From: an uncultured Christensenella sp.
GTDB lineage: Bacteria; Bacillota; Clostridia; Christensenellales; Borkfalkiaceae
DNA: 64,000 bases
Direction: 5' to 3'
NCBI GenBank assembly: GCA_910578765.1
Contig: CAJTRW010000001.1
Coordinates: forward strand, 3,386 to 67,385
The notes under the pieces were generated by a model, which saw only the letters and a program-made list of their open reading frames with translations, was not told where the DNA came from and did no database searches. This document shows, in pieces, positions 1,571 to 46,712 of the stretch (positions are counted from its first letter, which is position 1; each line of letters starts with the position of its first letter). Made by a program: the position numbers and the translations under genes.

Positions 1571-1596
1571 CGCATACCGCGGGTTTCGATACCCGT

Positions 1597-2988: not shown

Positions 2989-3041
2989 AAATTGCGGCGG
3001 TCGGAGTTGACACTCCGCCGCCGCAGTGGTATTATATTTGT

Positions 3042-30237: not shown

Positions 30238-30353
30238 AATAATCCTCGGGATTAGAGATTTTAAACAAAAAGTTTAATAAAAATAAACCCAAACAAGAAG
30301 ATTATATATATACAGCCCCCCTATGTCAAATATTTTTGTATAGTAATAAAAAA

Positions 30354-30375
30354 ATTCCCCGTCGAAACGGGGAAT
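30354..30375. terminator. Bidirectional terminator after the SGNH esterase gene
   Basis: Stem attccccg / cggggaat with loop tcgaaa, flanked by an A-run and a T-run. Confidence 0.7.
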
Positions 30376-30392
30376 TTTTATTTACTGATGAA

Positions 30393-32195
30393 TTATGCGT
30401 TTACCCATTCGCCCGAAGCAAATGTAATATTGCTGAAACTTGCCCTGGTTCCTCTTACTACCCACAAACAAACATAAACGTATTTATTATCCGAAGCGCC
30501 GAGATCAAAATCTTTTACCGCGCTGTACGGCGCTTTATCGTTAAATGTAGCGACAACGGACTGGCTTGTTCTTGCAATTGACAAGCTATATTTCGTGCCT
30601 GTGGTTATACCGCTGTCCTTAACGCCCGAAGTGAATAACGTTCCGTTAAGTCTACCGGAATAAACATTGGCGTCAGCCCCCTTATTAGTCACGATACAAC
30701 CGGTATTTACGTAATTACTTTTCGCTGTATTTAAAGAATCTACCATTATGTCATCCCTGAGCATCATACCAAAGCCCGACTGATTATTAGAGCTATCGAA
30801 AGTTTCCAAAGTTACGTCCGCCGTCACTGTGAACGCGGTAGCAAACGGTATTTGTATAAATATACCGACAAGACTGTCGTCGCCGCTTTGTATCTTACCT
30901 TTACCTGCGTCGGCATTGACCGTAAACGTTACTCCGTCCTCGTCCGTTCCCTGTGTAATAGAATATTGACTTGTTGTAGCAATATTGGTAATACCCAGAT
31001 TTGCGCCGAACGCAGTGCCGTACCAGTTGTAAACCTTTTCGGAATTTGCGTCCTTAGTGGAACCGTTTACTGCCCATTTCGAGGATTTATCGGTATCGGG
31101 ATTGAAAGGTTCTTGCGAGGGCACTTCATAATCGTGATTAACCATAGCCGTCGCATTTTCGGCATAAGTCGGTTTTTTTGCGTTTGTCTTTACGCTTGCC
31201 GAAAGCGGTAAAGTTGTAGATTTAATAGCGTCAGCTATATAATAGCTGTTCATTTTAGCACCGAAAAGGTTTGTATGTGTTCCGTCATACGAAGCCAAAT
31301 CGGGAACGATTGACGATTTGGATTCATCACTCCATTTACCGCCTTTAATAGAATGATATTTAATGGCTTCGTCATAACCGATAGCCTTATAATCATTTTT
31401 GGTAAGCGTGGTTAAATCCACAAGCGTTAAATTCTGTTCAGTCGCCAAATCGCGTATTGCCTGCGCATAGTTGCCACCGTTCCAGTCGGTAGTAATATTT
31501 TTGTTGGTAGAATCGGTATAATTAGTTTTCGATTCCGTAATATGATCGGAATCATACTTTGCAGAGTCGGAAGCAAGTCTTACTATAGGCGTACAAAGAA
31601 TTGGCGTCGCTCCTTTGCTTACCGCAAGATCGATATAATAATGTTTCAATATGTACTTGAACGAAACAGGGCGTTGCGCGTCATAAGTCCCTATCATAGT
31701 CGAGGTATCCGAGGAAGAAAGCGTCGGGTCGGAATATCTGTCCGCTTCATACTTCTCGTCATTATGTCCGAAGCCGATAATAAGATAATCACCGTTCGTT
31801 ATATTCGAAAGCTGTGAATAGTTATTCTCTTTTGTAAAGCTGTAAGAGCTCCTTCCGGAAAGCGCAATGTTTATGACGTTTGCTTTATCTATGTTTATAT
31901 ATTCTTGAATCTGCGTACCGTAACCGTAGCGCGGTATGTACAACGCTTTGTCGGTACTGCCGAAGTCGCAGACCGTGCTGTCGCCGACAAGGTAAATTTT
32001 ACCCGTGAATTTTACGGAAGTATCTTGTTCGGGCGTCCCGCCTTCGGGAGGGTTGGTTGTGCCGCCCGGGGGATTAGTCGTTCCGCCGTTTTCCTTATCC
32101 TTGCCCTTGCAGGCGGTCATGCCAACGCAGGCGAACGCCGTGCCGATACACAGTGCGGACGCCAGAACCGCGCTTAAAATTTTTTTGCTTTTCAT
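30393..32195 (-). CDS. Lipoprotein with an SGNH/GDSL esterase domain (rhamnogalacturonan acetylesterase RhgT-like) and a C-terminal beta-sandwich domain
   Basis: Start set at MKSKKILS (ATG 32195, AAGGAG RBS). Lipobox MTAC is present. SGNH blocks are IYLVGDSTV, GFGHND and DGTHTN. Confidence 0.75.
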   Translation of the reverse strand: MKSKKILSAVLASALCIGTAFACVGMTACKGKDKENGGTTNPPGGTTNPPEGGTPEQDTSVKFTGKIYLVGDSTVCDFGSTDKALYIPRYGYGTQIQEYINIDKANVINIALSGRSSYSFTKENNYSQLSNITNGDYLIIGFGHNDEKYEADRYSDPTLSSSDTSTMIGTYDAQRPVSFKYILKHYYIDLAVSKGATPILCTPIVRLASDSAKYDSDHITESKTNYTDSTNKNITTDWNGGNYAQAIRDLATEQNLTLVDLTTLTKNDYKAIGYDEAIKYHSIKGGKWSDESKSSIVPDLASYDGTHTNLFGAKMNSYYIADAIKSTTLPLSASVKTNAKKPTYAENATAMVNHDYEVPSQEPFNPDTDKSSKWAVNGSTKDANSEKVYNWYGTAFGANLGITNIATTSQYSITQGTDEDGVTFTVNADAGKGKIQSGDDSLVGIFIQIPFATAFTVTADVTLETFDSSNNQSGFGMMLRDDIMVDSLNTAKSNYVNTGCIVTNKGADANVYSGRLNGTLFTSGVKDSGITTGTKYSLSIARTSQSVVATFNDKAPYSAVKDFDLGASDNKYVYVCLWVVRGTRASFSNITFASGEWVNA

Positions 32196-32236
32196 ATAAT
32201 TCTCCTTAAAAAATATTTCAAACTGATAAGGATATT

Positions 32237-32276
32237 TGTGCGTTAATTCATTAACGCACAAGAGGGTACCCTCTTG
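32237..32276 (-). terminator. Two abutting hairpins right after the TIR gene stop (probable end of the island operon)
   Basis: Stems tgtgcgttaa / ttaacgcaca (32237-32260) and caagaggg / ccctcttg (32259-32276). There is no strong T-run. Confidence 0.45.
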
Positions 32277-32291
32277 CATTTCGACTTTTAA

Positions 32292-33431
32292 TTATAAATT
32301 TTTACCGAGCAGATATTTTTTGTATTTATTGTAATCTATGTCGATAACCGGTATTATGCTTGCGCAGGCGTCCACGTTTATTTGACGGTAAACGTCGTCG
32401 CTGCCCCTGTCCGCAAAAAGTATGTTGCCCTGACTGTCGCCGACAAAGAAATAACCGTCGTCTATCGAATCTGTCAGCGGCGCTTTTTCAAGCACTTCTT
32501 TCAGTTGCGGATAATTATTTTCATGCTCGGCAGCGCGCAGAAACCTGATTGCTTTGCCGTTGCCGTCCTTTTTCAGACACTCCGCAAAAGACGGTTCTAA
32601 CTCAATATGTTTTTCTTTCAGTCGCACGTCCCCTTTGTCAAGGAAAAGACCGTCGTTTATATAATCCATGACGCTTACCGCCAAGGAACGGCAAGCCGCG
32701 CCGTACAGCTCGTCTGAAACGAAAATTGCGCTAATCGTATCACCGTTATAGGCAAACACCTTCCACTCCGCATCCTGACCGTTGACCACGTTTTCAACTA
32801 TGCGGCAGGAAGTTTTTATGCGGTAATTCGCGTCTGTAAGCCCGTCCTCCGCAAGCGCGTCTATCTTGCCGCTTTCCTGCGACAGACACCCCCAGGTGGC
32901 AAACACGTCCTTTATAAGGGAATTGACAAGACCGTCGTCGTCCGTGCGCCCGAAAGCCGCCGTCTTATATATCCTGTCTTTATCGAACTTTTTTGAAAAG
33001 TGTCCCGTGCGCTCTAAAATTTTATCGAAATCCGCGGGATGCGCGCCGAGGAGCTTCTGTGTGGAAACGCTGAGAAAATTCTGCAAATTCATAGGGTCGC
33101 CGTCGCCCATAAGTACGTACGCCGTACCGAATTTTTTATGCGATTTTTCAAGACTTTCCGCCATATCGAACTCTTTGAGGCACGCCTCGCTGAAAATGAA
33201 ATCCGGACTGACAAGATATAAAATACCGCAGCAGTTTTTATTTGCCGTGACTTCCTCTACCTTTTTAAGCCAGTTCTGACCCGTTTTAAGCTCCGCGTCG
33301 TACCAAAAGTCCGCGCCATAATCGTTAAGCGCGGAAAGAAGCTTTGACACCGCTTCGCCATCCGCATGAGAATAGCTTACGAAAACGTATTTGCCGGAGG
33401 GGTTTTTTCTGCCGAGATATGTGTTGATCAT
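32292..33431 (-). CDS. TIR-domain protein with a ~230-aa uncharacterised C-terminal domain
   Basis: 379 aa. N-terminal KYVFVSYSHADGEAV...FWYDAEL..G.NW...V......CCGILYLVSPDFIFSEACLKEFDMA is a bacterial TIR pattern. The start overlaps the upstream stop (ATGA). Confidence 0.8.
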   Translation of the reverse strand: MINTYLGRKNPSGKYVFVSYSHADGEAVSKLLSALNDYGADFWYDAELKTGQNWLKKVEEVTANKNCCGILYLVSPDFIFSEACLKEFDMAESLEKSHKKFGTAYVLMGDGDPMNLQNFLSVSTQKLLGAHPADFDKILERTGHFSKKFDKDRIYKTAAFGRTDDDGLVNSLIKDVFATWGCLSQESGKIDALAEDGLTDANYRIKTSCRIVENVVNGQDAEWKVFAYNGDTISAIFVSDELYGAACRSLAVSVMDYINDGLFLDKGDVRLKEKHIELEPSFAECLKKDGNGKAIRFLRAAEHENNYPQLKEVLEKAPLTDSIDDGYFFVGDSQGNILFADRGSDDVYRQINVDACASIIPVIDIDYNKYKKYLLGKNL

Positions 33432-35857
33432 TGCTTTTCACCCTCCTTTATCACGGTCTCGTAAAATTTGGAGCACCTTATCAGTATAGGATAAGTTATC
33501 CAGCGCGTTTTTTCGAATTTCTTCGGCGCGATGTAATAATATCTTTTACTTATCTCGTACGAAAAATATGTAATGACGTTGTATTCCTTTTTTGGAAGAT
33601 ATTGCTCGCTTTCGTATACGGTGAAGGCGTTTATAGTGGTTTTATCTACGTTTACCCGACTTGAAGTATGCGTAAGAACCTGCGGGTAACAGGCAAACCT
33701 TGTACCGCCCGCGTCGTCGCCCTTGAAAAATTTCAAAAGCTCTATAACCCTGCCGATGAATTTGTCTCGTTCGCCGCGACACTGCTCCTCGTCGTCGAGG
33801 TCGCAACGGTATACGTATTCGAATCCGCCGCCGGATTTTCTTCTGCGTTCTACCAGATAGCACTTGCCGTTTTTATCGTCCATGCTTATAAACGCGCCGA
33901 GGGGTGTAAGACTTACCATCTCCCTGCCGAGCATAATGGATATTTCGGACTTCTGCTCCTCGGTGTCGTCGATAAGATTTCTGAAAAGAGTATAAAAAGT
34001 AGGCGACTGCCCCAAAACTTTAAGCTTACCGCGCACCCCCTGCATGAAAGCGAAATCTATCGCCTCCCTGCATTCCTTTACCGCCTGCGCGTTCAGCGAC
34101 GAGGTTTGTTCCGCCTTTATTTCGTAATCGAGCTGCTGGCTTGTGCAATTGGCAAGTCCCGCGTAGTAAGTTAAAATAATTTTTAAGGTGTCTCGCAACG
34201 CCGAGCGGACGTCCATAATACCGCTCATGCCGCTTATCAAATCTATTTTGTTTTGTATGCTGTAAACGTTTTCGCTGGGGCTTACGCTGTGGTCGGTCTT
34301 GTCCCTGTCCAAATTTTCGAGGCTGTACACAAGCGCGTCGGTATACGCCCTGATTTTAAAGGGCTTCAACGTCTGCGCAACCACGCCGTCATCACCGTCT
34401 ACCTCGCCGAGATTAAGGGAAAGATACTTAATAGACTCACCGTAAAACTCTTTTCTGAGTTCTTCCACTTCGACCGAGTCGAAATCCGCAAATCTTTTTT
34501 CCAGCTGACGGTTCACCTGTGAAAACAGCTCGTCATAGCTTTGGGTACCTATATATTCGAACTTAGCGAAAAGCTGAGGAAGAATTTCCTTACAGCCGAC
34601 GACAGAAAACAGAATTGTCAAAATGGATACTATATCCATATTGCTTACGCAGTCTGCTTTAAGCCTGTCCTTCGACTCGATAACCCTGTCTTCGTTACAA
34701 AGTCTGTTCCGCGCGCCGAATTTACAGCCCGCGCCGGAGCATACGCAGTCCTCTTTGCATATATTGAAGTTGTTTTTGATAACGGGCAGAATATAATTTT
34801 CCACTACGGCAAATTGCTTGTCCTTGGCAACGACGAGAATTTCAAGCGCGTCCATAACGGAGGCAGCAAGCTCGCCGTAATATTTATAGCTAGAAAGTCC
34901 GTTACAGAATGACATTCTGTGTCTTTTCCGCAACAGGTCTCCCGTTATGTAAGAGTAAATCTTACCAGTGCTGGGCGCAAGAATTATCAGTCCCCTGTCC
35001 GCCTGCGGATTTATTTCCGGAGAAAAGAAAATTTTCACCGCCTCGCTTGTGTCGTTGTCGCTAAGCCCCGTATAGTTAAGGCGCAGAACCTTGGGACCTT
35101 TTTTATTTGATAATTCTTCAATGTTTCTTAAAAGCAGAAATTTATCGCAATATTCGTTCGGCGAATATCTGACAAGCGCATATTTCGACGGATAGAAATT
35201 GTCGCCGACCTTGAAGCAGCACGGAACAACCTTTGCGTCCGCGTCCGCATATTCGCCGTCGTCGGTAATTTCAATGTCGCAGATAAACCCGAATTTTTTG
35301 AAAAGAGTATATAAAATATCGTTCGACTCCGTCATGTGCCCCTTCTTTTTGAAGGATGACTGGCGCAGCTTTTGGATATGCCTGAAAACGGAAATATATT
35401 CCTTCGTTTCGCTGTAAAAAGCGCCGCCCTTTTTTAAAACGTCGAATTTGTCGCGGAAGCTTTCGCTTGCGTCAAGCCCCAGCGCGATATTCAAAAGCAC
35501 GAAGCGCACCACGTCGTCGGTCACGTTATACGTGCTGTATAAATTGTCTGCGGCGTGCTTTATACGCGCTTCGCAATTGGATTCCGCACGGAAATCAACT
35601 GTCTTGTATAGCGCCTTGTATTTTGAAACGATGTACGCGAAAACGAGGTTGACTATACGGTTGAACATTTCCTCGCGGTAAATGGAAGCCGTTCTTAAAT
35701 TTTTTTCCAGCTTTTTCAGCTCTTTTTCGTAGTCCGAAACGAAATCCAAACCGAGTACTATCTGTCTGACGTACTTATCCTTTATCCCGCGACATAAATC
35801 AATAATTTTATCTGTGGCGTCTTTTTCTTCAAAGACGTCTGCACTTTCTAACGGCAT
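33428..35857 (-). CDS. Hypothetical 809-aa protein (no family recognised)
   Basis: Long uninterrupted ORF in operon context. The only motif noticed is the Cys cluster CKEDCVCSGAGCKFGARNRLC (about 34697-34765). Confidence 0.7.
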   Translation of the reverse strand: MPLESADVFEEKDATDKIIDLCRGIKDKYVRQIVLGLDFVSDYEKELKKLEKNLRTASIYREEMFNRIVNLVFAYIVSKYKALYKTVDFRAESNCEARIKHAADNLYSTYNVTDDVVRFVLLNIALGLDASESFRDKFDVLKKGGAFYSETKEYISVFRHIQKLRQSSFKKKGHMTESNDILYTLFKKFGFICDIEITDDGEYADADAKVVPCCFKVGDNFYPSKYALVRYSPNEYCDKFLLLRNIEELSNKKGPKVLRLNYTGLSDNDTSEAVKIFFSPEINPQADRGLIILAPSTGKIYSYITGDLLRKRHRMSFCNGLSSYKYYGELAASVMDALEILVVAKDKQFAVVENYILPVIKNNFNICKEDCVCSGAGCKFGARNRLCNEDRVIESKDRLKADCVSNMDIVSILTILFSVVGCKEILPQLFAKFEYIGTQSYDELFSQVNRQLEKRFADFDSVEVEELRKEFYGESIKYLSLNLGEVDGDDGVVAQTLKPFKIRAYTDALVYSLENLDRDKTDHSVSPSENVYSIQNKIDLISGMSGIMDVRSALRDTLKIILTYYAGLANCTSQQLDYEIKAEQTSSLNAQAVKECREAIDFAFMQGVRGKLKVLGQSPTFYTLFRNLIDDTEEQKSEISIMLGREMVSLTPLGAFISMDDKNGKCYLVERRRKSGGGFEYVYRCDLDDEEQCRGERDKFIGRVIELLKFFKGDDAGGTRFACYPQVLTHTSSRVNVDKTTINAFTVYESEQYLPKKEYNVITYFSYEISKRYYYIAPKKFEKTRWITYPILIRCSKFYETVIKEGEKQ

Positions 35858-35873
35858 AATATTTCCCTTTAAA

Positions 35874-36827
35874 TCAATTGCGTCTTATAAGCAGATTTGC
35901 AAGCTGCCTGTACTTTTCCTTTGCCATTACCTCGTCGGGGGCATCGGTGGCAAGCTTTGCAAGACAGCACTCCTGCCATTTGAACCTGTCCACCTCGGGA
36001 ATGCCGGGCACCGCGCCCTCCTGCATACCCCACGCCAGTCTGATAACTCCGCGCGTGTCGTGTGCCTTTGTATCCATTTCCTCACGGAAGCCCGCAAACA
36101 GATTGTCCTTGTAATATGCAGGATATACGTGCGTATCGATCTGCATTTCCCTGAAAGGAACCGCCGAGGGACAGAAGATTATCTTTTTCTCGTTTTTGAC
36201 CGCCGCCCATTTTGCCATAAGCTTTTCGAAGCACAGCCTTGTGCCCTTTTCGAACTGTACGGACGGGCGCATGCAGCACACTATGGTGTCCGACCTGTCA
36301 AGCGAGAAGGTAGCCATGTCCTGCGTGCCCGACGGAGTATCGAAAACGACGGTACAGTCGCATCTGTCCATGACGTCGAACGCGGCGGTTAAATTTTTGT
36401 TTTCCGGCCCCTGACCGTTCATTGCGAAAACCGTTTCCCAAAGAGCGTCCTGCTCTGCGGGGGTAACGTCGGAGCGAAGAAGAAGAACCGCCTCGTTTTC
36501 CACGTCGCGCGTAAAATAATTGCCAATGGGGATAAAATACTCGTTCAGTTTTTTATACGAGCCCCAGTCCGTCGGGTCGCCGTTATAATTGAATGTGTCG
36601 GATTTGGCGCGGACGCCGAGACCCTGCAAGGATTGCTCCGCGTCGTACTTGGCGCCGGAATCCTTTATAAGCATGGACATGCCGTAGCTTTCCGTATCAG
36701 CGTCCACTATGATAAGCGGAGATTTGCGGGTGGGCTTTTGCTCCTGAATAAGATAATAAAGGGTATTAAGCGTTGCGGTCGTTCTGCCGGAACCGCCTTT
36801 ATATGAAAAGAATGAAATAACCGACAT
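35874..36827 (-). CDS. ParA/MinD-like (SIMIBI) ATPase with a KGGSGR variant Walker A
   Basis: 317 aa. ISFFSYKGGSGRTTATLN is a deviant Walker A with Arg in place of the GK[ST] lysine. IVDADTES and a Walker B-like VVFDTPSG are present. Confidence 0.75.
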   Translation of the reverse strand: MSVISFFSYKGGSGRTTATLNTLYYLIQEQKPTRKSPLIIVDADTESYGMSMLIKDSGAKYDAEQSLQGLGVRAKSDTFNYNGDPTDWGSYKKLNEYFIPIGNYFTRDVENEAVLLLRSDVTPAEQDALWETVFAMNGQGPENKNLTAAFDVMDRCDCTVVFDTPSGTQDMATFSLDRSDTIVCCMRPSVQFEKGTRLCFEKLMAKWAAVKNEKKIIFCPSAVPFREMQIDTHVYPAYYKDNLFAGFREEMDTKAHDTRGVIRLAWGMQEGAVPGIPEVDRFKWQECCLAKLATDAPDEVMAKEKYRQLANLLIRRN

Positions 36828-36855: not shown

Positions 36856-39201
36856 TTACTCCTTGTTCGACGGCACCTTTGCCGTGAGATAAGTTATAAG
36901 ATTGCGCATGAATTTAGAGCTGTCTCCCTCCGCGCCGAAAACGTTTCTGATTATTGTGCTGTGCGCGTCCTTTCTGTCCTCGGGGTCGCCGTTTTTCAAA
37001 AAAGCCACAAGCTGGGGATTGTATTCCATAGAAAGTAAGGACAAAAGCTGTAATTTTTCCGTAAGGTGCACAAGCTTGGTAAGCTTAACCGCGTCGGTAT
37101 CCTTGTCGAAGGAATTCAACTTGTCTATAACCTTTTCGCGGTTGCTTCTTTCGCCCGCTTCCAGATTGGCAAGCAGATTGTCCGCCGTAAGCTGGTCGTC
37201 TATAAGGTCTATAAGCCCGTTAGCGACGAAACCCGCTATGTCTCTGAAAAGCTTCCTTGTACGTCCGATATATTCGTCGCGCCAGGCAATTTCCTCCGCG
37301 TGCTTTTTATGCGCGGCGGAAAGCACGTTTTCGTACTTTTCGCGCTCTGCCTGCGCTGCTTTCTTTTCCTGTCTGCGCCTGTTTCTTTCGCTGTCGATAA
37401 AGGGCTCCTCATACTGCTCGTAATAGCGGTAGAAGGATATAAGCGCGTCAATGTAATAGTAGTTGGTAATTGCGTTGAAGCCGTCCTTATCCCATACCCA
37501 GCTCGACTCTCCGCCCTTGCGCTTTTTGTTGCGGATGATATCTTTTAAAGACTCCTTCATCTGCTTCTGAGGATACTGCACAACATACTGACTCATCAGG
37601 TTGTTGTTTTTAAGCATAAGGGGCAGAAGCGGAACCGCCGCTATATTGACTTTTCTGAGCTGTTTGGCAAGCTCGGAATTGGTGTCGTCCACCTTGTCGG
37701 AAAAGTCAAGTATATAGCTGTCTATTTTATATAAAAGTCCTTCGTTCTCGATCTCGTTATAACAGCGCTGCGTATTCTGTATAGCTATCTGGAAGGTGTT
37801 CAGCATTTTTTCGTATTCTTCGGGGTCGTTTACGGAAAGCTCATAATCGTACGCCGAATTCAATATTATGCCTATTACGAAAAGATTGTTGAAAAACGCG
37901 TTGTTGTGGCTGGAAAGCCTTACCGTATCCATGTCGACGAGAGTACCGTCCTCGTAACAGGGGCCCTTGGACATATTGACCTTAAAAGGCGTTTTTGTTT
38001 TCAGGTTGCCGAAGCCCTCGTTCCACAGACTTTCCGCAAGAGAGACGGAGGCTTCTTTCAATACAGTGAAAGCGCCGTCTGCGCCGTCCTCGTCCGCCCT
38101 GTACGTCAGCGGCTGCCCGGCGTTGATTGCGTTATAAAGCAGGTCAAGCTCTTTTAAAGAGTCCGCGGAAAGGTTGGAAAGGAAGTCCGCAAATTCGTCG
38201 AACCCGTCGCGTTTAAGGCGCTGCACCGTCTTTTCAAGCGAGGCCGGGTTGGTCAGCCCATGATAAAATTTAAAGTGCGCGACGGTGTCGCCCGAGGCCG
38301 AAAGCTGCTTTTCGAAGCGTCTTAATTTGCCGACAATATCAGCGCCGCAATCGAACCGTTTAAAAAGCCCCAGATAGACCGTCGACGCAACGTAAGAGAA
38401 ATATAACGAAGGCTCTGCCCCGCTCATCTTCCTGAACGACCAGCCCGCCACTTTTCCATCGCGACGGACTATGCAGTCGCACGTGATTCTGATACATTCG
38501 AGATACAGCGCGCGGACAGCCTTTTCCACTTCCTCAGCGGAAAGTGTTTCGTCCGCGGTATAAACCCTGTCGCCCTTTATTTCCCATTTGATTTTAGCGT
38601 ATTCTTCGGGGGCTACCCTTTTCATGCGGGCAAGGAAGCTTTCAACCGAGTCCGCGGCAAGGAACACCCAGCTTGCGCTGTCCAAATAGCCGCCCGTATC
38701 CCAACGAAGCCCTTCCGTCGCGGTGGTGTCGTCGTAAAAAGGCATACTGGAAAGAAGTATTCTTCCGCCCGACTTAACGCCCGAAGGGAAGCACTCGGCA
38801 AGCAGCTTGCAGACCGAATTTACAATTACGTTCAGTGTAGAGGGCTTGCCTTCCGTAAGCATTTCGGCAAAAGTTACACCTTCCGCCCCCTCCTCCTTTT
38901 CGTCCTCCAATAAGGAAATCTCTAACAGAAGCGCGGAGAGCGACGGGGCTATGGAAAGCACCCCCACCTCCTGCATTTCGTCGGAAAGGAAAAGTCCCTC
39001 GTCTGCGAGAGCGCGGCGCGTTCTTCTGTCGCCCGAACGGTATCCGTTAGCTATAAGGTCTTTAATCCACTCCCTTGCCGCAACTCTTTTGCTTTTGAAT
39101 TTTCTGAATATGCCGCTCTCTCCGCCGGCTTCCGCAAGACCGTCGAACTCGTCCGCGGCATTATAATTCTTTTCGCTCAATTTCTCTCTCTCCTTTATCA
39201 T
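36856..39201 (-). CDS. Hypothetical 781-aa, largely alpha-helical protein (no family recognised)
   Basis: Long ORF 11 nt after the radical SAM stop. It is rich in helix-like W/Y segments (ASWVFLAADS, SLYFSYVASTVYLGL, WVWDKDGFNAITNYYYIDALISFY) and has a coiled-coil tail. Confidence 0.7.
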   Translation of the reverse strand: MIKEREKLSEKNYNAADEFDGLAEAGGESGIFRKFKSKRVAAREWIKDLIANGYRSGDRRTRRALADEGLFLSDEMQEVGVLSIAPSLSALLLEISLLEDEKEEGAEGVTFAEMLTEGKPSTLNVIVNSVCKLLAECFPSGVKSGGRILLSSMPFYDDTTATEGLRWDTGGYLDSASWVFLAADSVESFLARMKRVAPEEYAKIKWEIKGDRVYTADETLSAEEVEKAVRALYLECIRITCDCIVRRDGKVAGWSFRKMSGAEPSLYFSYVASTVYLGLFKRFDCGADIVGKLRRFEKQLSASGDTVAHFKFYHGLTNPASLEKTVQRLKRDGFDEFADFLSNLSADSLKELDLLYNAINAGQPLTYRADEDGADGAFTVLKEASVSLAESLWNEGFGNLKTKTPFKVNMSKGPCYEDGTLVDMDTVRLSSHNNAFFNNLFVIGIILNSAYDYELSVNDPEEYEKMLNTFQIAIQNTQRCYNEIENEGLLYKIDSYILDFSDKVDDTNSELAKQLRKVNIAAVPLLPLMLKNNNLMSQYVVQYPQKQMKESLKDIIRNKKRKGGESSWVWDKDGFNAITNYYYIDALISFYRYYEQYEEPFIDSERNRRRQEKKAAQAEREKYENVLSAAHKKHAEEIAWRDEYIGRTRKLFRDIAGFVANGLIDLIDDQLTADNLLANLEAGERSNREKVIDKLNSFDKDTDAVKLTKLVHLTEKLQLLSLLSMEYNPQLVAFLKNGDPEDRKDAHSTIIRNVFGAEGDSSKFMRNLITYLTAKVPSNKE

Positions 39202-39212
39202 TTGTTACTTTA

Positions 39213-40313
39213 TTAAGGGTGTTTGTATTTGAATTCGCCGCCGAAACGGGCATAGTCGCCGCCTATTTTAGCGTATATGTATCTAAGCGGCTCGCACACG
39301 GTTTTTTTGATAGTAAACAAATCGCCGCGTTCGTTCAAAGTTTCGCCAAGACAAAAGCCCGCGCAATGCTCCCGCGCGATACAGTCTCGACATTCGGGAA
39401 GATTGTCCAGCGTCCTGCTCTGTAAAACGTCTATCTTCTTTTTATCGTAAATTATACGGTTGTTTTCTTTATCGTACTTGCCGTAGATAAACGCATCCAT
39501 CTGTGCGGCGTTTTCGCCGCTTGTACACATTTCGCAGGCGGAAACGTAACCGTCCATGGTCAGGTGCGGCATAGGCAGGCAAGAGCGGCAATTATAACAC
39601 GTTGGACCGTCGAAGTTGGTGGTGAAGTTGCTTTCGTAAAAAACCCCGCGCGTTTTGCCGTATTCCCTCGCCTCTATAAACCTGCGCGCAAAATGCATAT
39701 TGTCTATCGGCTCGAAAGTCTTATCCTCCGTCTCGCTGACGGGCGCGAAAATGGGGTCGACCCAGATATGCTTTATACCCAGCGACAAAAGATAGTCAAT
39801 GCCCTCCTTTTGCCTGTCTATATTGTACGGCGTAATAGTACTGCGCACGCCGACCATGGCGCGCTTGTTTTCGAGGTTTTTGAAATATTTCAGGTTGCGC
39901 TCTATAACGGCGGACGTAGGTTTTCCGCTGACCGTCACGCGGAACATGTCGTGCGTTTCGGGAAGCAAGTCCATGGACACCCAGATTTCGTCCATGTTAT
40001 AAGCCAGCCACTCCGCAAGGCGGGGGTTGAAAAACCCGTTAGTCTGTATTTCGCAGTTTACATCCGGTTTGAATTTCCTTGCGTACGCGCATATTTGTTT
40101 TATAAGCTCCGGCTCGGTCGTGGGTTCGCCGTCGCCGAAAAATCTTATTCCGTTCACTACGCCCGTGGCGACGTACTCGTCTATCCCGCACTTCGCAAAG
40201 TCCAAATCCAAAACGGTATATTTGGCTTTGCGCGCGCCGTAACAGTATTTGCACGCCATATTGCAACGCGACGTAAGCAGAAACGATATTATTCTTTTGT
40301 TACAGTAAGGCAA
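39213..40313 (-). CDS. Radical SAM enzyme with a C-terminal SPASM domain
   Basis: 366 aa. CNMACKYC is the CxxxCxxC cluster. The C-terminus has CYNCRSC...ACEMC and CRDCIAREHCAGFC (CxxCx5Cx3C). The apparent start is TTG at 40313, after GGGAGGA. Confidence 0.85.
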   Translation of the reverse strand: MPYCNKRIISFLLTSRCNMACKYCYGARKAKYTVLDLDFAKCGIDEYVATGVVNGIRFFGDGEPTTEPELIKQICAYARKFKPDVNCEIQTNGFFNPRLAEWLAYNMDEIWVSMDLLPETHDMFRVTVSGKPTSAVIERNLKYFKNLENKRAMVGVRSTITPYNIDRQKEGIDYLLSLGIKHIWVDPIFAPVSETEDKTFEPIDNMHFARRFIEAREYGKTRGVFYESNFTTNFDGPTCYNCRSCLPMPHLTMDGYVSACEMCTSGENAAQMDAFIYGKYDKENNRIIYDKKKIDVLQSRTLDNLPECRDCIAREHCAGFCLGETLNERGDLFTIKKTVCEPLRYIYAKIGGDYARFGGEFKYKHP

Positions 40314-40359
40314 ACAATCCTCCCGCGCGGCGTAAAGCCGAGTTAAAGTTACGAAAAAA

Positions 40360-40388
40360 ATTATACAACAAATTTATACGCAAGTCAA
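40360..40388 (-). promoter_or_regulatory. Promoter of the radical-SAM-to-TIR operon, TTGACT-17 nt-TATAAT
   Basis: Minus-strand reading is ccgTTGACTtgcgtataaatttgttgTATAATttttttcg, about 40 nt upstream of the start codon. Confidence 0.7.
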
Positions 40389-40420
40389 CGGTTACGGCAA
40401 ATAATCGGGGCATAAAAACG

Positions 40421-42601
40421 TCATACGCGCTTAACTATTTTAAACCCGCAGCGCGTTAACAGCCAATAGGCGTCGTCCATTAACTGATAGTCGTATTTTA
40501 TAACGTCGGTTTCGTTTTCGTCAAGGTTATCCCTTTCGGCAATAATGCGCCTGAACTCCGCCAGCCCGTCGAAGGTGGTGATATTCCCGTGGCGGCGCAG
40601 GTTATAGTTTTTGCCGTCGGTGAAAACGGTCCTGCCGTTCTTTACGGTCGTTTCGTTGAGTATTTGCTGTTTATCGGCGGGTATTACGCCCTTCGACAGC
40701 ATGAAAGCGTTCCACCTGTAATGCTCGGATACTGCCAGATTTTTTCTCTTGGATTCGGGAAAATCCAGCGTGTAATTAATAATTTTTTTGCCGTCCGCCG
40801 TGACGGAATCATATCGCGCGTCGGGCGCGTCTCCGTCGGCGTAGACCTGCATATATTCGCTTTCGGAAAGTGCGGGCAGCGCACTGTCCTCCGCGTCGCA
40901 ATAGTCCAACCCCAGCATATTCAACTTGGAACGCAGACTGAGACAGCAATACAGACTCGACTCCCTTTCGAGACTGGATTTTTCCGTAAACCACTTTTTC
41001 TCGGCAACCAGGCGGCACTCCGCAAGGCTTTGCTCGGTCGGGGTGAAAGCCGCGTCCGTCGTAATTCTTTTTTCCAGCTCGTATATATAATCGCGCAGCT
41101 TTGCCATGCGTGAAATTTTGTCGTCCGTAATCTGCTCTATGTCGTAAACGTCGGATTTCTCGTCGCCTATCGGGTAACAGTTTTCCCCCGTGACAAGCTT
41201 GCCGTATCTCTCCGCATCGCGCACCTTGACGAATATCGCGACGTCGCTCAAGCCCCACTCCGCGCGCTTTTCCGTAAGCTTGCAGGCAAGGTCTATGTTT
41301 TCGAGATCGGTACCGAAAGATATTATTATGAAGCCGACGCCGTTTTTACACGACGCCGCCTTTCTTATATCGCTGTAAAAGTCGGGGCTGTTGACGTCAA
41401 GATGCCTGTATTCCTCTATTGCGGGCAGAGGCGGCAACGGCAGATAATCCACCGCGTCCGCGTCCGGAAATTCGTTTTTAAAACGGTAATAAGTATGATT
41501 GAGGTTTTTGTTTTCTTCGGACGAATTTTTATCGAATATAAAGTATTTGACGGGCTTTACGGAAAGACACTTCCCGTCGCGGCAGAGGAACTGGTTGTTT
41601 GCCACAGAAGCGAGGAATATCCTGCGGTTGGCGTTGCCGAAGCCTATCAGACAGACGTTTATTTCCGTTTGCTTTTTGACAAGCGCGGTTTCGTAATCGA
41701 TGTGCCGCCCGTCCATAAAAGAAGATAAAGGATATCTGTCGGTAAAGCGCGCCGCAAGCATGAGATACTTGTTTTTGTATTGAATACAGCCCGCCGACTG
41801 CGCAACCGCCTGACCGTAAACAGCCTCATGTGCGGGATCGCCGAAAACGTAGACGCGCAGGCGGCACCGTTCTTTGCCTGACGTAACGGCTTTGTTCGTT
41901 TGCTCGTTGAAAAGGCGGCATATATTCAGGTTTTTTCCGTCGTCGCCGGTATTTATCACAATCGTACTATCAGCGCCGTCTCCGCCTATCCGCCGCATTA
42001 TGCCGCACACGGCGGCTTCGTAATTTTTAAGATTTATGTAATTAATCTTCTTGCGGTAAAGGAAAAGTCTGTCCTCCGCCGAAAGACCGTCTACTATCAA
42101 TGCCGCGTAGCGCCCCGCGCTTTTGTAAACGTTGATGTTGTCTTTGTTATAACCGAAGATATACAGTTTGGGTTTGCGGCTGAAACGCAGATAAATCGAG
42201 CTTGCAAAACGCCGTATCTGCTGGCTTGTAAGCGAAAACGTAAACAGCAGCGCGTTTAACAGGACGAGTATACAGCAGTAGTAAACCGTTATTTTATAGA
42301 ACAGGTCCGCTTTCATCAGGGCGGATATATCCGACAGACTGTATTTAAGTACGACAAGGTTTACGGTGTTGCCCACCGCTTTGAAAAACGCCGTTAAAAA
42401 ATCCGCGCCGCCGTACATGAAGCCTATGCAGAAAAGAGGTATGGCCAGTACAAGCACTACGGCGCACTTGCCTTTTTTAAAGCTTCTCAGATAAGCTATC
42501 CTGTCCTCCCTGTTCTTTACCGCGAAGCTGACCGCCGTATAAATAACCGCGACGGTCAGTAAAGTAAAGCATATTGCCGTGACAACGTTGTAAGCCGCCA
42601 T
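40421..42601 (-). CDS. Membrane protein: N-terminal TM helices, two Rossmann-like segments and a C-terminal EHxRW (RyR-like) module
   Basis: 726 aa with about 4 TM helices in the first 130 aa. KLYIFGYNKDN and INVCLIGFGNANRR are beta-Gly-rich starts. The C-terminus has LAVSEHYRWNAFMLSKG. Confidence 0.6.
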   Translation of the reverse strand: MAAYNVVTAICFTLLTVAVIYTAVSFAVKNREDRIAYLRSFKKGKCAVVLVLAIPLFCIGFMYGGADFLTAFFKAVGNTVNLVVLKYSLSDISALMKADLFYKITVYYCCILVLLNALLFTFSLTSQQIRRFASSIYLRFSRKPKLYIFGYNKDNINVYKSAGRYAALIVDGLSAEDRLFLYRKKINYINLKNYEAAVCGIMRRIGGDGADSTIVINTGDDGKNLNICRLFNEQTNKAVTSGKERCRLRVYVFGDPAHEAVYGQAVAQSAGCIQYKNKYLMLAARFTDRYPLSSFMDGRHIDYETALVKKQTEINVCLIGFGNANRRIFLASVANNQFLCRDGKCLSVKPVKYFIFDKNSSEENKNLNHTYYRFKNEFPDADAVDYLPLPPLPAIEEYRHLDVNSPDFYSDIRKAASCKNGVGFIIISFGTDLENIDLACKLTEKRAEWGLSDVAIFVKVRDAERYGKLVTGENCYPIGDEKSDVYDIEQITDDKISRMAKLRDYIYELEKRITTDAAFTPTEQSLAECRLVAEKKWFTEKSSLERESSLYCCLSLRSKLNMLGLDYCDAEDSALPALSESEYMQVYADGDAPDARYDSVTADGKKIINYTLDFPESKRKNLAVSEHYRWNAFMLSKGVIPADKQQILNETTVKNGRTVFTDGKNYNLRRHGNITTFDGLAEFRRIIAERDNLDENETDVIKYDYQLMDDAYWLLTRCGFKIVKRV

Positions 42602-42620: not shown

Positions 42621-44903
42621 TTATCTGAAACAGTCTATAAAGTGAATTGTTTCGTTATCCTTTAAGCCGCGCTTGCGGGCAATATCTATGCAGTGATACG
42701 TGCCGCCGCGGTTTATGGGATTGTTGTCCCTGTCGTGAAGGGGAAGCTCTTTGCCGTCCCATACGGCGATTAGCCTGTCGCATTTTTCTATAAGATATTT
42801 TCCCGACTCGTAGTAAGTATAAACGGGGTCCGGCACGACCTTGCACACTACGGCAAGGGCTAAAAGATGCCTCAGGTGCAACACCTCATTTTCCGTCATA
42901 GGGTTGCCGTGCGTTTGCCTGTCGCCGATAACGTCCCTTATGTGCTGTTCGTACTCCATTGGCAGGACGGCTTTGGTTGTAAGGTTAAGCTCGTCGGCGC
43001 ACTCGGCTATGAGTATATCCGCCCCGTTAGCGTAACACGTCCTGACTATGACGCGGTATTCCTCGGCATATTTTTTCAAAATAGCTTTTATTTTTTCTTT
43101 AATCAAATTTCTCGTAGCGGGGTCGGTGTCCTCGGTAAAGTATCTGTGACCCGTACCCGCAATTACCAAATCCTCCTTCCTGCCGGAGCGGTAATTATAT
43201 ATCTTTATGCCGCTGTTGAATTTTTTCAAAAGCGGTATTATGTTGCGAATCATTAAAACGTCCTTGCTTTTTTCGCTTTCGGAAAGCGCTTCGTACGGCA
43301 CTATGGACTTGTGGATTTTTTTACAGTTTCTCTCCTCCGCGGTTTTGTAATCGGTTCCGTAGCGCCAGCCGAGGTTAAGCTTTTCCCTGACCCAGCGCAA
43401 ATGCTCCTCGCGCGCGAGAAACTCCACGTTTCTCGCCCCCCGGTTCCCGAGGCGGCAGTCGTTAAAGTCGTCCACAACGGGATAGTCTAAATTTTTACTG
43501 CTGTAAAAGCAGTTTATAAGCTCCAGCTTGTAAGAGTAAGATTTTGCCTGTTCGATATTGGATACCTTATATTCCAGCGGCAATTCCGCAAAGGAACAAT
43601 TCAGATGGTCGATATTATAGTCCAGACAGTGCTTTATGTAACTTGCGTGTATCGCCTTGGCGAAGTCGCAAAGATTTATGAAGTTATCCTCTGAAGCGTA
43701 TAAATAGGATTTCTTTTTCTTCGTCCTTTCCGCCGCCGAAGCGTCCAGCCGCAAATCGGATTTTATAAAGCTTTTTATCGCTTTGACGAAATCTCCGTCC
43801 TGTATATCGTTAAAGCTTTTATTGGGACGCTTCTTTAAAAACCCGTCGGAATAATCGTCTACGGAATAACTTTCGAATATATACCGCGCGGAAATATAAT
43901 CGTCGGAAACCGTAAGCTCTACGTCCCAGGCTATGGGGTCGCATTTGCTCGCCTTGCCGTAAGCAAGCCTGTCCCAGTTCTGCAATTCGTCGCAGAGAAT
44001 GAGAAGGTACGCAAGGGGATGCTCGTTTAATTCAATCGGATGTGCATTTTCTATTTCGTATTTATTCAGACTGTTGTGAAGAAGTATCGCCGTCAGTACA
44101 TCCAGCCTTTCCGCGTCTAAAACAAGCCCGTCGTTTTCAAACAGGCTTTTCGCAAGAATGACCGCACTGAAATAGCCGTGGTCCATAAATTTCGGCTGGC
44201 GTTCCACGCGCGTTTTCAACTTTCCGCAAACATAGTCGAAGTCGTACCCCTCGCGCTTTTGCAGCCCGTAAGATAAAAGCTCGTTAACGGACGAAAAGGT
44301 CCTGTCGGCTTTCAAACTTTCTCTTATGCGCTTACCCGTTGCGTCGTCTAATTTTAAAAACCCGTCCATATTGCCGAACGAAACGTAGGGTTTTTCGCCG
44401 CCTTCCCACAGCTCGCCCGCGTAGACTTTAAGTTGCTCGTGCGCAAGTTGGAAGGGATAACCCACGTCGTGGAAAAGCGAAACGGTACCCCATAGACGCA
44501 AAAATTTTTCCGCCGCCTCGCCGCCCGTAACTTTATAAAAATTATCGAACGCGGAACGCAGCTTCCCGTCGTGCGCGTACATCGCCAGACCCAAAGCGAA
44601 AACGTAAACCGAATGCGAATAATGGTCGCGGTGTTTGGACAGCAGCTCGCCGGAATGATATTCGTGGTCGGAAAGAGTTTCCAATAGCTTTTGCGTGTTC
44701 TCGTAACCGCTGCCGAAAAGCTTGAAAATCTCACTGAAACAAAAATAGACGACGAATGCGTCCGCCTTTTTGCCGCTTTTTAAAAACGCTTCCGTAGCTT
44801 TGCGAAAACAGGTCATTTCGTTTTTCGGGATTTCGCCGCCGTTGCCGCAACGGTTTTCCATCATATCGAAATAGCCGCCGCATAGTTGTAACAATGTGTT
44901 CAT
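42621..44903 (-). CDS. HD-domain / RyR-domain / SLOG-like three-domain protein
   Basis: Start set at MNTLLQL (ATG 44903, AAAGGTGA RBS). HD: HRDHYSHS...LFHDVGYP. RyR: LAREEHLRWVREKLNLGWRYG...HKSIVPYEALSESEKSKD. C-terminus: VIAGTGHR...YANGADILIAECA...IAVWDG...NRGGTYHCI (LOG/SLOG-like). Confidence 0.7.
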   Translation of the reverse strand: MNTLLQLCGGYFDMMENRCGNGGEIPKNEMTCFRKATEAFLKSGKKADAFVVYFCFSEIFKLFGSGYENTQKLLETLSDHEYHSGELLSKHRDHYSHSVYVFALGLAMYAHDGKLRSAFDNFYKVTGGEAAEKFLRLWGTVSLFHDVGYPFQLAHEQLKVYAGELWEGGEKPYVSFGNMDGFLKLDDATGKRIRESLKADRTFSSVNELLSYGLQKREGYDFDYVCGKLKTRVERQPKFMDHGYFSAVILAKSLFENDGLVLDAERLDVLTAILLHNSLNKYEIENAHPIELNEHPLAYLLILCDELQNWDRLAYGKASKCDPIAWDVELTVSDDYISARYIFESYSVDDYSDGFLKKRPNKSFNDIQDGDFVKAIKSFIKSDLRLDASAAERTKKKKSYLYASEDNFINLCDFAKAIHASYIKHCLDYNIDHLNCSFAELPLEYKVSNIEQAKSYSYKLELINCFYSSKNLDYPVVDDFNDCRLGNRGARNVEFLAREEHLRWVREKLNLGWRYGTDYKTAEERNCKKIHKSIVPYEALSESEKSKDVLMIRNIIPLLKKFNSGIKIYNYRSGRKEDLVIAGTGHRYFTEDTDPATRNLIKEKIKAILKKYAEEYRVIVRTCYANGADILIAECADELNLTTKAVLPMEYEQHIRDVIGDRQTHGNPMTENEVLHLRHLLALAVVCKVVPDPVYTYYESGKYLIEKCDRLIAVWDGKELPLHDRDNNPINRGGTYHCIDIARKRGLKDNETIHFIDCFR

Positions 44904-44943
44904 AAATTCACCTTTTCTCTTACGGCAAAAAACCGCTTTGTTT

Positions 44944-44972
44944 ATTATATCACTAAAAACGCGCGCCGTCAA
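44944..44972 (-). promoter_or_regulatory. Promoter of the HD-RyR-SLOG transcription unit, TTGACG-17 nt-TATAAT
   Basis: Minus-strand reading is aatatTGACGgcgcgcgtttttagtgaTATAATaaac. The -10 lies at 44949-44944 and the -35 at 44972-44967. Confidence 0.7.
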
Positions 44973-44998
44973 TATTCGCCGCGGAATATCTTGCGGCA

Positions 44999-45027
44999 TT
45001 GACATTAATTGCGTTTAGTGTTATAAA
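44999..45027 (+). promoter_or_regulatory. Divergent promoter of the 550-aa membrane protein gene, TTGACA-17 nt-TATAAA
   Basis: TTGACA at 44999-45004, 17-nt spacer, TATAAA at 45022-45027. RBS ggagag precedes ATG 45060. Confidence 0.65.
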
Positions 45028-45059: not shown

Positions 45060-46712
45060 ATGATTTACGAGCTGGAATATGTAAACAAAAGGTACGACGA
45101 AATTATAAAAGAAGTCGACTTCGTAAACAATAAGGGCACAGACCCGCAATCCTTATTTATCTATATAAAAGGTTGCGGTTTGCTGTCGAATATAAAGACT
45201 TATTTTGTTTATGCAAAATTGTTAAAAAAACTAAAAAAGTTAATGACTTTAAGCGGATATATGCTTGATTATCATGAAAGTTATAAAAGCAACTCCGTCG
45301 GCAAAAAGCAATTGAAACAAAGAAAAAAAGCAGGAAAATATTTTTCAAAGAAAAAAGATAATATAGACGCCGACTACTCGCAAGAAAAAGACGAAAGAGA
45401 TCCCGACGAAATCATTGCGGACCTGAAAGAAATCAGAGAAAATATAGCGCAGCTTATAGTTAAAATAGAGCCTCTGTTAAAGAGCCTTAGGGAATATTTA
45501 TTCAACACGGTCATTATTGCGTTTATGCCGTTTACCGTTGTAGGCTATGCTTTGCTGACAAGCTTTTTAAAAAACAACGCCGTAGACGTTACGGCAACCG
45601 TCACGGCATTCGTATGCTGGTCGGGATATTTAGCCGCAAGAGCGGTATACCTTATAAAATTTACGCGTTACTACAAGTTGGACGGGAAAGCCGCTTGCAT
45701 TAAATTGATGTATCACCTGTCCGCAATTTTTACATATTTTTCGATAGACCTGCTGTTCTGCCTTACTTGCTTCGGTTGCGGCGATTTGCCTGCCGCCGTG
45801 TTGTTGCTGATATTATGCGGCGTTTTCATTTTTACATTTTTATACGATATTTTCTGCTCGTCGAAATTTTTTATAGGCGAACTCGGGTACTGTTCGTTTG
45901 TCGTTTTGGCGGGCGCGGTACTGTGCGTTATTCTTTTCGCCGTCGAAAACGTTATAATTTCCCGAATAGTTTCGGGGTTTTTGATTTCGGTTGAAATAGG
46001 ACTTCTGCTGATAATATTCAAGGCGTTTATTATAGAGCAAAGGAAAATCGAAACCTTAGTGCAAATAATATGTATAATAATAATCGTGCTTATGAGTATC
46101 TGCATAGGCGCGGTGTTGATTTACCGCTTTACCTGGGTTTCCCCCACGGAAGGAAAACCTGCCGACAATACTCTTTTCAGCGCCGTAATGGGCATATATG
46201 CCGCGCTTATCGGCGGAGTTCTTACTTTCACGGGCGTGGCCTGGACTATACGGCACAACGAACAACAGCGTAAAGCAGACGAAAAAATGCGAGTAAGACC
46301 TTATTTGGTCAATAGCAGTTATAGCAACAATCACCCTATTTATCCCTTGCTGTTCAAAAATTTTTCGAATGAAAACGAGGAACCGCTCATAATTAAAAAA
46401 ATATACGTTTATGTAACCGATGCGGCGGACTGTATCTTTCTCGGACTTATGACGAAAGAAAAATTTTTCCCTATGGACGGAGAGATTTATACAAAACGCA
46501 ATTCTTACCATGCTACCGTAGAATTGCGTTTACCGCAAAATACACGTTTGGATAAAACTTACCTGATAGTAAAAGATTTGCTTGATAATTTGTATAAATT
46601 CGAATGTAAGCTTGAAGCTTGCGAGGACGGCAAATATCAATGCGTCGACATAGGAATACCCGAAGAACTTGACAAAAACCGGCTTCAACTAATAAATTCC
46701 GATAAACAATAA
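45060..46712 (+). CDS. Hypothetical multipass membrane protein (soluble N-terminus, ~8 TM, soluble C-terminal domain)
   Basis: 550 aa and the only plus-strand gene in the region. It is visibly AT-rich and I recognise no family. Confidence 0.65.
   Translation: MIYELEYVNKRYDEIIKEVDFVNNKGTDPQSLFIYIKGCGLLSNIKTYFVYAKLLKKLKKLMTLSGYMLDYHESYKSNSVGKKQLKQRKKAGKYFSKKKDNIDADYSQEKDERDPDEIIADLKEIRENIAQLIVKIEPLLKSLREYLFNTVIIAFMPFTVVGYALLTSFLKNNAVDVTATVTAFVCWSGYLAARAVYLIKFTRYYKLDGKAACIKLMYHLSAIFTYFSIDLLFCLTCFGCGDLPAAVLLLILCGVFIFTFLYDIFCSSKFFIGELGYCSFVVLAGAVLCVILFAVENVIISRIVSGFLISVEIGLLLIIFKAFIIEQRKIETLVQIICIIIIVLMSICIGAVLIYRFTWVSPTEGKPADNTLFSAVMGIYAALIGGVLTFTGVAWTIRHNEQQRKADEKMRVRPYLVNSSYSNNHPIYPLLFKNFSNENEEPLIIKKIYVYVTDAADCIFLGLMTKEKFFPMDGEIYTKRNSYHATVELRLPQNTRLDKTYLIVKDLLDNLYKFECKLEACEDGKYQCVDIGIPEELDKNRLQLINSDKQ

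Follow-up and report, generated by a model that had tools for sequence, protein, structure and literature searches.

Radical S-adenosylmethionine (rSAM) enzymes with a SPASM domain include the thioether maturases CteB (of SCIFF), PapB, and QhpD. The anaerobic sulfatase maturase (anSME) and BtrN have a folded protein or small molecule as substrate instead of a leader peptide. Conflict systems with rSAM enzymes are also described. FxSxx-COOH (Fxs) modules with rSAM/SPASM enzymes occur in VMAP/AP-ATPase systems (PMC7159879), and rSAM enzymes are essential in the demonstrated antiphage operon HXS (HxsA-D), where twin enzymes mature a secreted HxS-repeat peptide (PMC13128918). Here we describe an rSAM/SPASM gene that heads a TIR operon in 64,000 nucleotides (nt) of an uncultured Christensenella sp. 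(assembly GCA_910578765.1, contig CAJTRW010000001.1, positions 3,386–67,385), a stretch called the window below. The operon encodes, in order, the rSAM enzyme, protein B (781 aa), a ParA-like KGGxGR ATPase, protein D (809 aa), and a TIR protein. An earlier note, made from the sequence of the window, held rSAM enzymes to be rare in defence apart from viperins, a view made outdated by HXS and the Fxs modules.

The window enzyme resembles CteB, PapB, and QhpD, its best full-length matches, in its CxxxCxxC motif and full SPASM domain. It differs in scoring 3–6 times below their cut-offs and in lacking an RRE domain, a precursor gene, and a small-subunit gene. CteB has an open auxiliary site, whereas the eight SPASM cysteines of the window enzyme suggest fully ligated clusters. 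Its length and lack of an RRE domain are shared with anSME and BtrN (~370 aa), and its SPASM cysteine spacing is anSME-like. BtrN adjoins DegT aminotransferases, SDRs, and APH kinases, as do distant relatives of the window enzyme. However, the anSME model TIGR03942 scores 59 bits (cut-off 349), the cassette has no sulfatase or aminocyclitol genes, and no sulfatase domain was found in the operon proteins with Pfam. The prokaryotic viperins (pVip) are likewise rSAM enzymes in a defence-type context without a peptide substrate. They differ in matching only the core of the window enzyme, in lacking SPASM, and in their gene setting, usually solitary or paired with a kinase where the window has a five-gene TIR cassette.

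Fxs modules bring together an rSAM/SPASM enzyme, a protein resembling TIR, and a MinD/ParA-like (KGGVGR) domain termed "inactive" (PMC7159879). The window has a similar set, with its ParA-like ATPase below the cut-off of the KGGVGR model. The window cassette differs in having no FxSxx-COOH precursor, vWA-MoxR, AP-ATPase/TPR, or MPTase peptidase, and its five proteins end in KYKHP, PSNKE, LIRRN, EGEKQ, and LGKNL, none of them FxSxx-COOH. Compared with HXS, it lacks a repeat-peptide gene and has a TIR gene, and the HxsB and HxsC scores are below cut-off. Thoeris likenesses are a TIR_2 domain with a conserved Glu, a ThsB-like PADLOC match (2e-8), a mobile cassette, and fast-evolving partners. Thoeris has no known counterpart of B, D, or the ParA-like ATPase, and no ThsA effector domain (SIR2, SLOG, or Macro) was found in any operon protein with Pfam, NCBIfam, or PADLOC. 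By these comparisons the window cassette fell outside the Fxs, HXS, viperin, and Thoeris systems, and no paper was found that describes a cassette of TIR, rSAM/SPASM, and ParA-like genes.

The radical SAM/SPASM enzyme

The gene encodes an intact three-cluster rSAM/SPASM enzyme of an uncharacterised ~360-aa family without an RRE domain. Its radical SAM motif is CNMACKYC (C17-x3-C21-x2-C24), its SAM-binding motif is GDGEP (residues 60–64), and its SPASM signature is C242-x2-C245-x9-G255-x4-C260, C308-x2-C311-x5-C317-x3-C321, and C340. The 11 motif cysteines and C4 are invariant in an alignment of 26 rSAM sequences with 54–86% identity. Pfam Radical_SAM (PF04055) matches with E=2e-12 (48 bits, cut-off 29.5). 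The window enzyme has the features of the radical SAM superfamily with a SPASM domain, and the earlier note read it correctly as a CxxxCxxC enzyme with a complete SPASM motif. Judged by their anSME-like spacing only, the eight SPASM cysteines suggest two fully Cys-ligated auxiliary clusters.

Many SPASM maturases in NCBIfam align to the enzyme over its full length, all below threshold. The best is PapB (NF047865, 5e-30), with 105 bits for a cut-off of 340. Other scores are 78 for QhpD (TIGR03906, cut-off 453), 75 for SCIFF (TIGR03974, cut-off 425), 59 for HxsB (TIGR03978, cut-off 370), and 34 for HxsC (TIGR03977, cut-off 268). No curated NCBIfam family cut-off was reached, and the tight clustering with a housekeeping family such as anSME that the earlier note had allowed for was not seen. 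FxsB was absent among the 25 best NCBIfam matches and lower matches all score <34 bits, so FxsB scores <34 bits. Among solved structures, the SCIFF maturase CteB (PDB 5wgg) is closest, matched through the SPASM domain with E=1e-14 for the single sequence and 3e-22 for the profile. The CteB alignment begins at CteB residue 103, and the rSAM core of the window enzyme begins at residue 9–13. The 366 aa are therefore taken up by the core and the SPASM domain, with no room for an RRE domain, and no RRE or PqqD-like leader-binding domain was found in the enzyme.

A family search had 169 members, of which the best 120 were listed and a sample of these was used to fetch genomic contexts. Among the 120, 104 end in His-Pro-COOH, and the family N-terminus is M-x-[HY]-x-x-K (M-P-Y-C in the window protein). 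No relative of the enzyme was found on viral contigs.

At the start of the gene the minus strand reads GGGAGGA-TTGT-TTG-CCT-TAC-TGT, and the earlier note had placed a TTG start ~4 nt past GGAGGA. As judged from homologous loci, this start is real and conserved, because they start at the same codon, with TTG in 8 loci of the same clade and ATG in 12 more distant loci, all continuing P-[YH]-C. GGAG-type Shine-Dalgarno (SD) sequences stand at the equivalent position in homologous loci. The next in-frame ATG is M19, within the Cys motif. Public gene calls in the 90% cluster of the window protein include 366-aa forms (TTG) and 348-aa forms (ATG at M19), the latter without C17. In the 348-aa form the radical SAM motif lacks its first Cys, and many database entries for the protein are therefore truncated.

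Flanking gaps are 107 nt upstream (40314..40420) and 11 nt downstream (39202..39212). The upstream gap holds a promoter by consensus match, as the earlier note had it. Open reading frames (ORFs) of 15–130 aa in and within 1.5 kb of 11 cassettes were compared all against all. No small ORF was shared across the 11, and the only matches were between loci L010 and L011, inside a common downstream DNA stretch. Intra-cassette gaps in these loci range from −112 to +82 nt, except for one of 204 nt in L008. By this comparison the enzyme has no precursor peptide. The earlier note had seen no precursor gene but granted that one might have been missed by eye; none turned up. The sole small ORF in the upstream gap (37 aa, 40300..40413) was rejected: it lacks an SD and conservation, and it runs across both the promoter and the start of the rSAM gene. 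Scans of the window for Rfam families and tRNAs found nothing.

A conserved cassette and its wider family

Locus contexts were scored against the proteins of the window. All 11 surveyed loci with an rSAM enzyme of 53–86% identity carry TIR, rSAM, B, ATPase, and D genes, and come from Christensenellaceae, Clostridia, and Bacilli metagenome-assembled genomes. The order rSAM-B-ATPase-D is fixed in the 11 loci and the TIR gene stands at either end; in the window it is the last of the five conserved genes and the rSAM gene the first, as the earlier note's TIR operon implied. Identities to the window proteins are 27–65% for B (720–890 aa), 27–75% for the ParA-like protein (313–347 aa), 22–66% for D (about 810–840 aa, split in L008), and 24–56% for the TIR protein. 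The enzyme is far better conserved than its partners, with 53% identity in L009 compared with 27% for B, 32% for the ATPase, 22% for D, and 38% for TIR. Flanking genes vary from locus to locus, and the cassette is therefore mobile. Another 16 rSAM-bearing cassette loci were found in metagenomes. The TIR gene accompanies the rSAM gene in every cassette on a long enough contig. Homologues of the enzyme at ≤47% identity lack the cassette. Exact cassette proteins are present on hundreds of contigs, and the locus is common in gut Clostridia.

B and D have no relative in Pfam, NCBIfam, PADLOC, PHROGs, or PDB profile searches, and no Pfam domain was found in 10 distant B relatives. AlphaFold2 (AF2) models have a mean predicted local distance difference test (pLDDT) of 68 for B and 74 for D. 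Foldseek searches of the PDB with these models gave no match at E<0.001, and B showed only weak signs of an (alpha/alpha) toroid, at E 0.15 or worse. The variant Walker A motif of the ParA-like protein, SYKGGSGRTT, is invariant in its alignment, and the closest model is NF047398, "KGGVGR-motif variant AAA ATPase" (52 bits, cut-off 90). A NifH/Mrp-like Fe-S protein was considered for the ATPase and is kept only as a lead: the family as a whole shares no conserved Cys, and Cys184 and Cys288 are enriched in rSAM-bearing loci alone, perhaps a phylogenetic effect. Paired cysteines do occur in rSAM-bearing cassettes, C184/C185 in IVCCMRPS and C287/C288 in WQECCL. The cysteine enrichment may mark a target site or the binding of a metal or cluster, or may be due to clade history. 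The TIR domain (PF13676) scores 51 bits for a cut-off of 28, and its invariant E87 lines up with the conserved Glu in the catalytic site of Brucella TcpB/BtpA (motif ARELD). By fold match and catalytic Glu, both read from sequence, it is a predicted TIR domain of the NADase type.

B, ATPase, and D are the basis of a wider cassette family, so far undescribed, in which the operon represents one clade. A full HMMER scan with a B profile gave 193 representative clusters, and the distant locus L030 has TIR-B-ATPase-D without rSAM. Metagenomes were scanned for the B motif W.W-x19-F[YF].YY..[YF]E with a hand-made DNA pattern. The yield was 61 loci, about 51 of them true B loci, with ORFs classified by hidden Markov models built for the purpose. 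The ATPase gene follows B in every metagenomic locus with enough sequence. Of the loci, 29 extend at least 1.3 kb upstream of B. The gene immediately upstream is rSAM in 13 of them and TIR without rSAM in 12, and the remaining 4 have neither. A PAD_porph deiminase gene (E about 1e-87) lies upstream of B in L083, L084, and L085 (3 of these 4) and in L052. Since rSAM, TIR, or PAD_porph genes lie 5′ of B in different loci, the position is a variable enzyme slot. The rSAM enzyme is an optional module of the B-ATPase-D system and not its defining head, a point that the earlier note missed.

L052 carries a TIR gene besides PAD_porph, whereas L083, L084, and L085 have none. An AdoMet_dc protein is encoded after D in L083 and L085 and downstream in L052, and the AdoMet_dc-fold protein is duplicated in all three, with D detected in only two of them. 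The PAD_porph and AdoMet_dc pairing resembles arginine decarboxylase with agmatine deiminase, here in a conflict-type cassette. L069 has a GNAT gene after D, and L052 also has GDSL, DUF4062, and TPR genes.

Substrate and function of the enzyme

We give about even odds that the enzyme is an accessory radical enzyme with a small-molecule substrate, serving a so far undescribed conflict cassette of B-ATPase-D and TIR. A conflict or defence role is inferred indirectly for the cassette from its TIR protein, variable flanks, fast-evolving partners, and RyR, DUF4062, and TPR neighbours. B, ATPase, and D would form a sensing and switching core, and the TIR protein is predicted to be an NAD+-consuming effector or signal generator. 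The enzyme would be an accessory catalytic module, and not a maturase of ribosomally synthesised and post-translationally modified peptides (RiPPs), applying SAM-derived radical chemistry to a non-ribosomal substrate. Most likely it would act on a small molecule, for example a nucleotide or ribose compound derived from TIR/NAD+ chemistry, or a metabolite made from an amino acid. The likeliest chemistry would be anSME/BtrN-type oxidation or viperin-type dehydration, and the product could feed into the TIR response or add a second arm. The earlier note had offered a large neighbouring protein, for example through the Cys cluster of D, or a small molecule as substrate; the small molecule is better supported and the Cys cluster failed, as described below.

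RiPP hallmarks were not seen in the loci of relatives with 40–47% identity to the enzyme. In L026 (a C. perfringens plasmid cluster) and L028, these relatives are clustered with SDR, AsnB, AMP-binding enzyme, and further rSAM genes, with an MFS transporter in L026 and a HAD enzyme and APH kinases in L028. Other adjoining genes encode APH kinases (L005, L017, L020), DegT or class V aminotransferases (L016, L027), SET-domain proteins (L019, L029), PAD or ADI enzymes (L029, L027), PHP proteins (L022, L028), and PnuC (L023). The APH-family kinase recurs as a neighbour from archaea to Clostridium (L005, L017, L020, L028), and the archaeal and Clostridium kinases are 37–43% identical. This hints at a transferable module of rSAM enzyme and APH kinase for a small-molecule substrate.

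L027 is a second, different TIR locus, with, in this order, RyR, cyclase, TIR-FGE fusion, 2-hydroxyacid dehydrogenase, DDAH/ADI, rSAM, aminotransferase, AAA, and VWA genes. Its fusion gene (880..3543) joins a TIR domain to an FGE-sulfatase (formylglycine-generating-enzyme fold) domain in an operon with a 42%-identical rSAM relative. A TIR-FGE fusion beside an anSME-like rSAM enzyme may be a coincidence or a hint of formylglycine-type chemistry.

Several points weigh against a small-molecule substrate in an undescribed conflict system. Among characterised enzymes, those nearest in sequence (PapB, QhpD, and SCIFF/CteB) are all thioether maturases of peptides or proteins, and such substrates are also the most typical ones for a full SPASM domain with two auxiliary clusters. 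Small-molecule contexts were seen for relatives of only 40–47% identity, whose substrates may differ. The rSAM-bearing loci may form one monophyletic clade, and locus counts are therefore not independent events. PADLOC has no model for the cassette. Finally, loop 305–321 of D, the helical insert of B (residues ~301–380), and ATPase Cys184 and Cys288 could be docking or target sites, or clade markers.

The main rival reading is a protein maturase like anSME or QhpD that forms a crosslink or oxidised residue in D, B, or the ATPase, a change that would be needed to arm the complex in the rSAM-bearing clade. We regard it as possible but clearly the less probable of the two. The rSAM gene is tightly coupled in translation to B, with a gap of −47 to +29 nt and invariant order in 11 loci, and an enzyme of ~366 aa without an RRE domain is like anSME. 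The best sequence matches are thioether-forming maturases, and the partners have features specific to rSAM-bearing cassettes. These are the low-pLDDT D loop, the B insert, and the ATPase cysteines. Cys184 is present in 21/21 ATPases of rSAM-bearing and 4/14 of rSAM-less cassettes, and Cys288 in 18/21 and 0/14. The gap fraction over successive 20-aa blocks of the B insert is 0.9, 0.6, 0.4, and 0.6 in rSAM-less compared with 0.4, 0.1, 0.1, and 0.2 in rSAM-bearing cassettes. However, no target-type residue (Cys or aromatic motif) is invariant in the partners of rSAM-bearing cassettes and absent from rSAM-less ones, and C318 in the D loop is replaced by Phe in half of the clades. The partners diverge to 19–35% identity while the enzyme stays >53%. 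The rSAM-less cassettes share the same core, which therefore needs no such maturation in general.

The D Cys cluster also speaks against a protein substrate. In the wider alignment it is present only in the window-type sub-clade, in 10/19 D proteins from rSAM-bearing loci. L009, L015, L036, and the clade L038/L044/L047/L062/L066/L077/L079 lack the cluster, though each has an rSAM gene in the same cassette. The cluster is limited to one sub-clade of rSAM-bearing cassettes and was therefore rejected as a general substrate. A fused core peptide in the conserved, low-pLDDT C-terminal tail of D (residues 725–800) was also considered and rejected, as the tail is equally conserved in rSAM-less cassettes.

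It is improbable that the enzyme is instead a viperin-like or SAM-consuming effector independent of the TIR protein, making a chain-terminating nucleotide analogue or depleting SAM once B-ATPase-D fires. Its only PADLOC matches are pVip models (E=1e-11 and 6e-10), and the slot and flanks of rSAM-less cassettes hold metabolite-consuming TIR, AdoMet decarboxylase, and PAD_porph genes. However, the pVip match is limited to the generic rSAM core (residues 9–191, profile positions 2–177 of 257). Viperins have no SPASM domain, and PDB viperins match residues 11–123 only (E ~5e-5, compared with 3e-22 for CteB). The constant company of a TIR gene also argues against an independent effector.

An ordinary RiPP or housekeeping (anSME-type) maturase with a substrate encoded elsewhere and a coincidental TIR neighbour would fit the SPASM architecture and the solitary relatives with 43–47% identity in archaea, Chloroflexota, and Clostridium, but this reading is already disfavoured and very unlikely given the strict co-occurrence with the cassette (11/11 surveyed loci >53% identity in differing flanks, plus the 16 metagenomic loci), the failure to reach anSME or any other curated family cut-off, and the lack of an RRE domain.

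Neighbouring genes and significance

The features of the window are listed in Table 1. The GDSL-like gene lies outside the conserved cassette. A GDSL gene also adjoins the TIR gene in the unrelated locus L052 (10028..11209) and another is found in L074 (8359..10257); most cassettes have none. The RyR gene pair upstream recurs beside B-ATPase cassettes with and without rSAM, in either gene order (window, L010, L011, L050, L080, L086, L009, L036, L063, L069, and L076), and may belong to the system as an optional component. No relative of the 550-aa membrane protein was found in other loci. Small ORFs downstream of the RHS gene (49783..50301) could be candidate immunity genes.

Table 1. Features of the cassette and its surroundings in the window
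Feature	Coordinates	Strand	Remarks
Intrinsic-terminator-like hairpin	30350..30379	minus	strong, 13-bp stem then T run; operon end
GDSL-like protein	30393..32279	minus	628 aa; last gene ahead of terminator
TIR-domain protein	32292..33431	minus	379 aa; TIR_2 at residues 16–137
Protein D	33428..35857	minus	809 aa; helical plus two beta domains
D Cys cluster, C367..C403	34649..34759	minus	confined to one sub-clade
D loop 305–321, ITGxLxxxR....SF[CF][NR]G	34895..34945	minus	conserved only in rSAM-bearing cassettes; low pLDDT
ParA/MinD-like P-loop protein	35874..36827	minus	317 aa; variant Walker A (Lys to Arg)
Protein B	36856..39201	minus	781 aa; all-alpha, long coiled coil; core component of wider family
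B helical insert, residues ~301–380	38062..38301	minus	mostly missing from B of rSAM-less cassettes
rSAM/SPASM enzyme gene	39213..40313	minus	366 aa, intact, TTG start; first gene of operon
SPASM domain codons (C242, C245, G255, C260, C308, C311, C317, C321, C340)	39294..39590	minus	all invariant; CteB SPASM alignment
Radical SAM [4Fe-4S] motif codons C17-x3-C21-x2-C24	40242..40265	minus	invariant, 26 homologues
Shine-Dalgarno GGGAGGA	40318..40324	minus	4 nt ahead of TTG; read from sequence
Sigma-70-like promoter TTGACT-17-TATAAT	40360..40388	minus	11/12 matches; consensus match only
Transmembrane/RyR-like protein	40421..42601	minus	726 aa; N-terminal transmembrane helices, RyR-like C-terminus; upstream of cassette
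RyR-domain protein	42621..45005	minus	794 aa; Pfam RyR at residues 513–598; upstream of cassette
Multi-pass membrane protein	45060..46712	plus	550 aa; no family match; divergent from RyR genes
RHS-repeat protein	50321..56056	minus	1911 aa; likely polymorphic toxin, ~5 kb beyond island

Immunity in bacteria, plants, and animals relies centrally on TIR systems, whose known chemistry, to our knowledge, ends at NAD+ cleavage or cyclisation. The cassette pairs a TIR protein with a three-cluster radical enzyme without a peptide substrate, and sister cassettes hold deiminases and decarboxylases at the same position. This points to an unexplored metabolite-editing layer in bacterial conflict systems. 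A bolder and rather unlikely proposal is that the enzyme edits a TIR-made NAD+- or ADP-ribose-derived nucleotide, or another ribose or amine metabolite, to give an immune signal or antiviral small molecule of a new class. B-ATPase-D would then be a new sensor and switch scaffold with interchangeable metabolite-editing enzymes (rSAM, arginine/agmatine deiminase, AdoMet decarboxylase, GNAT). For enzymologists, the locus provides a well-defined uncharacterised rSAM/SPASM family, marked by M-x-[HY]-x-x-K, His-Pro-COOH, and the lack of an RRE domain, together with two large core proteins, B and D, without detectable relatives. There is a real chance of new chemistry in the rSAM cassette.

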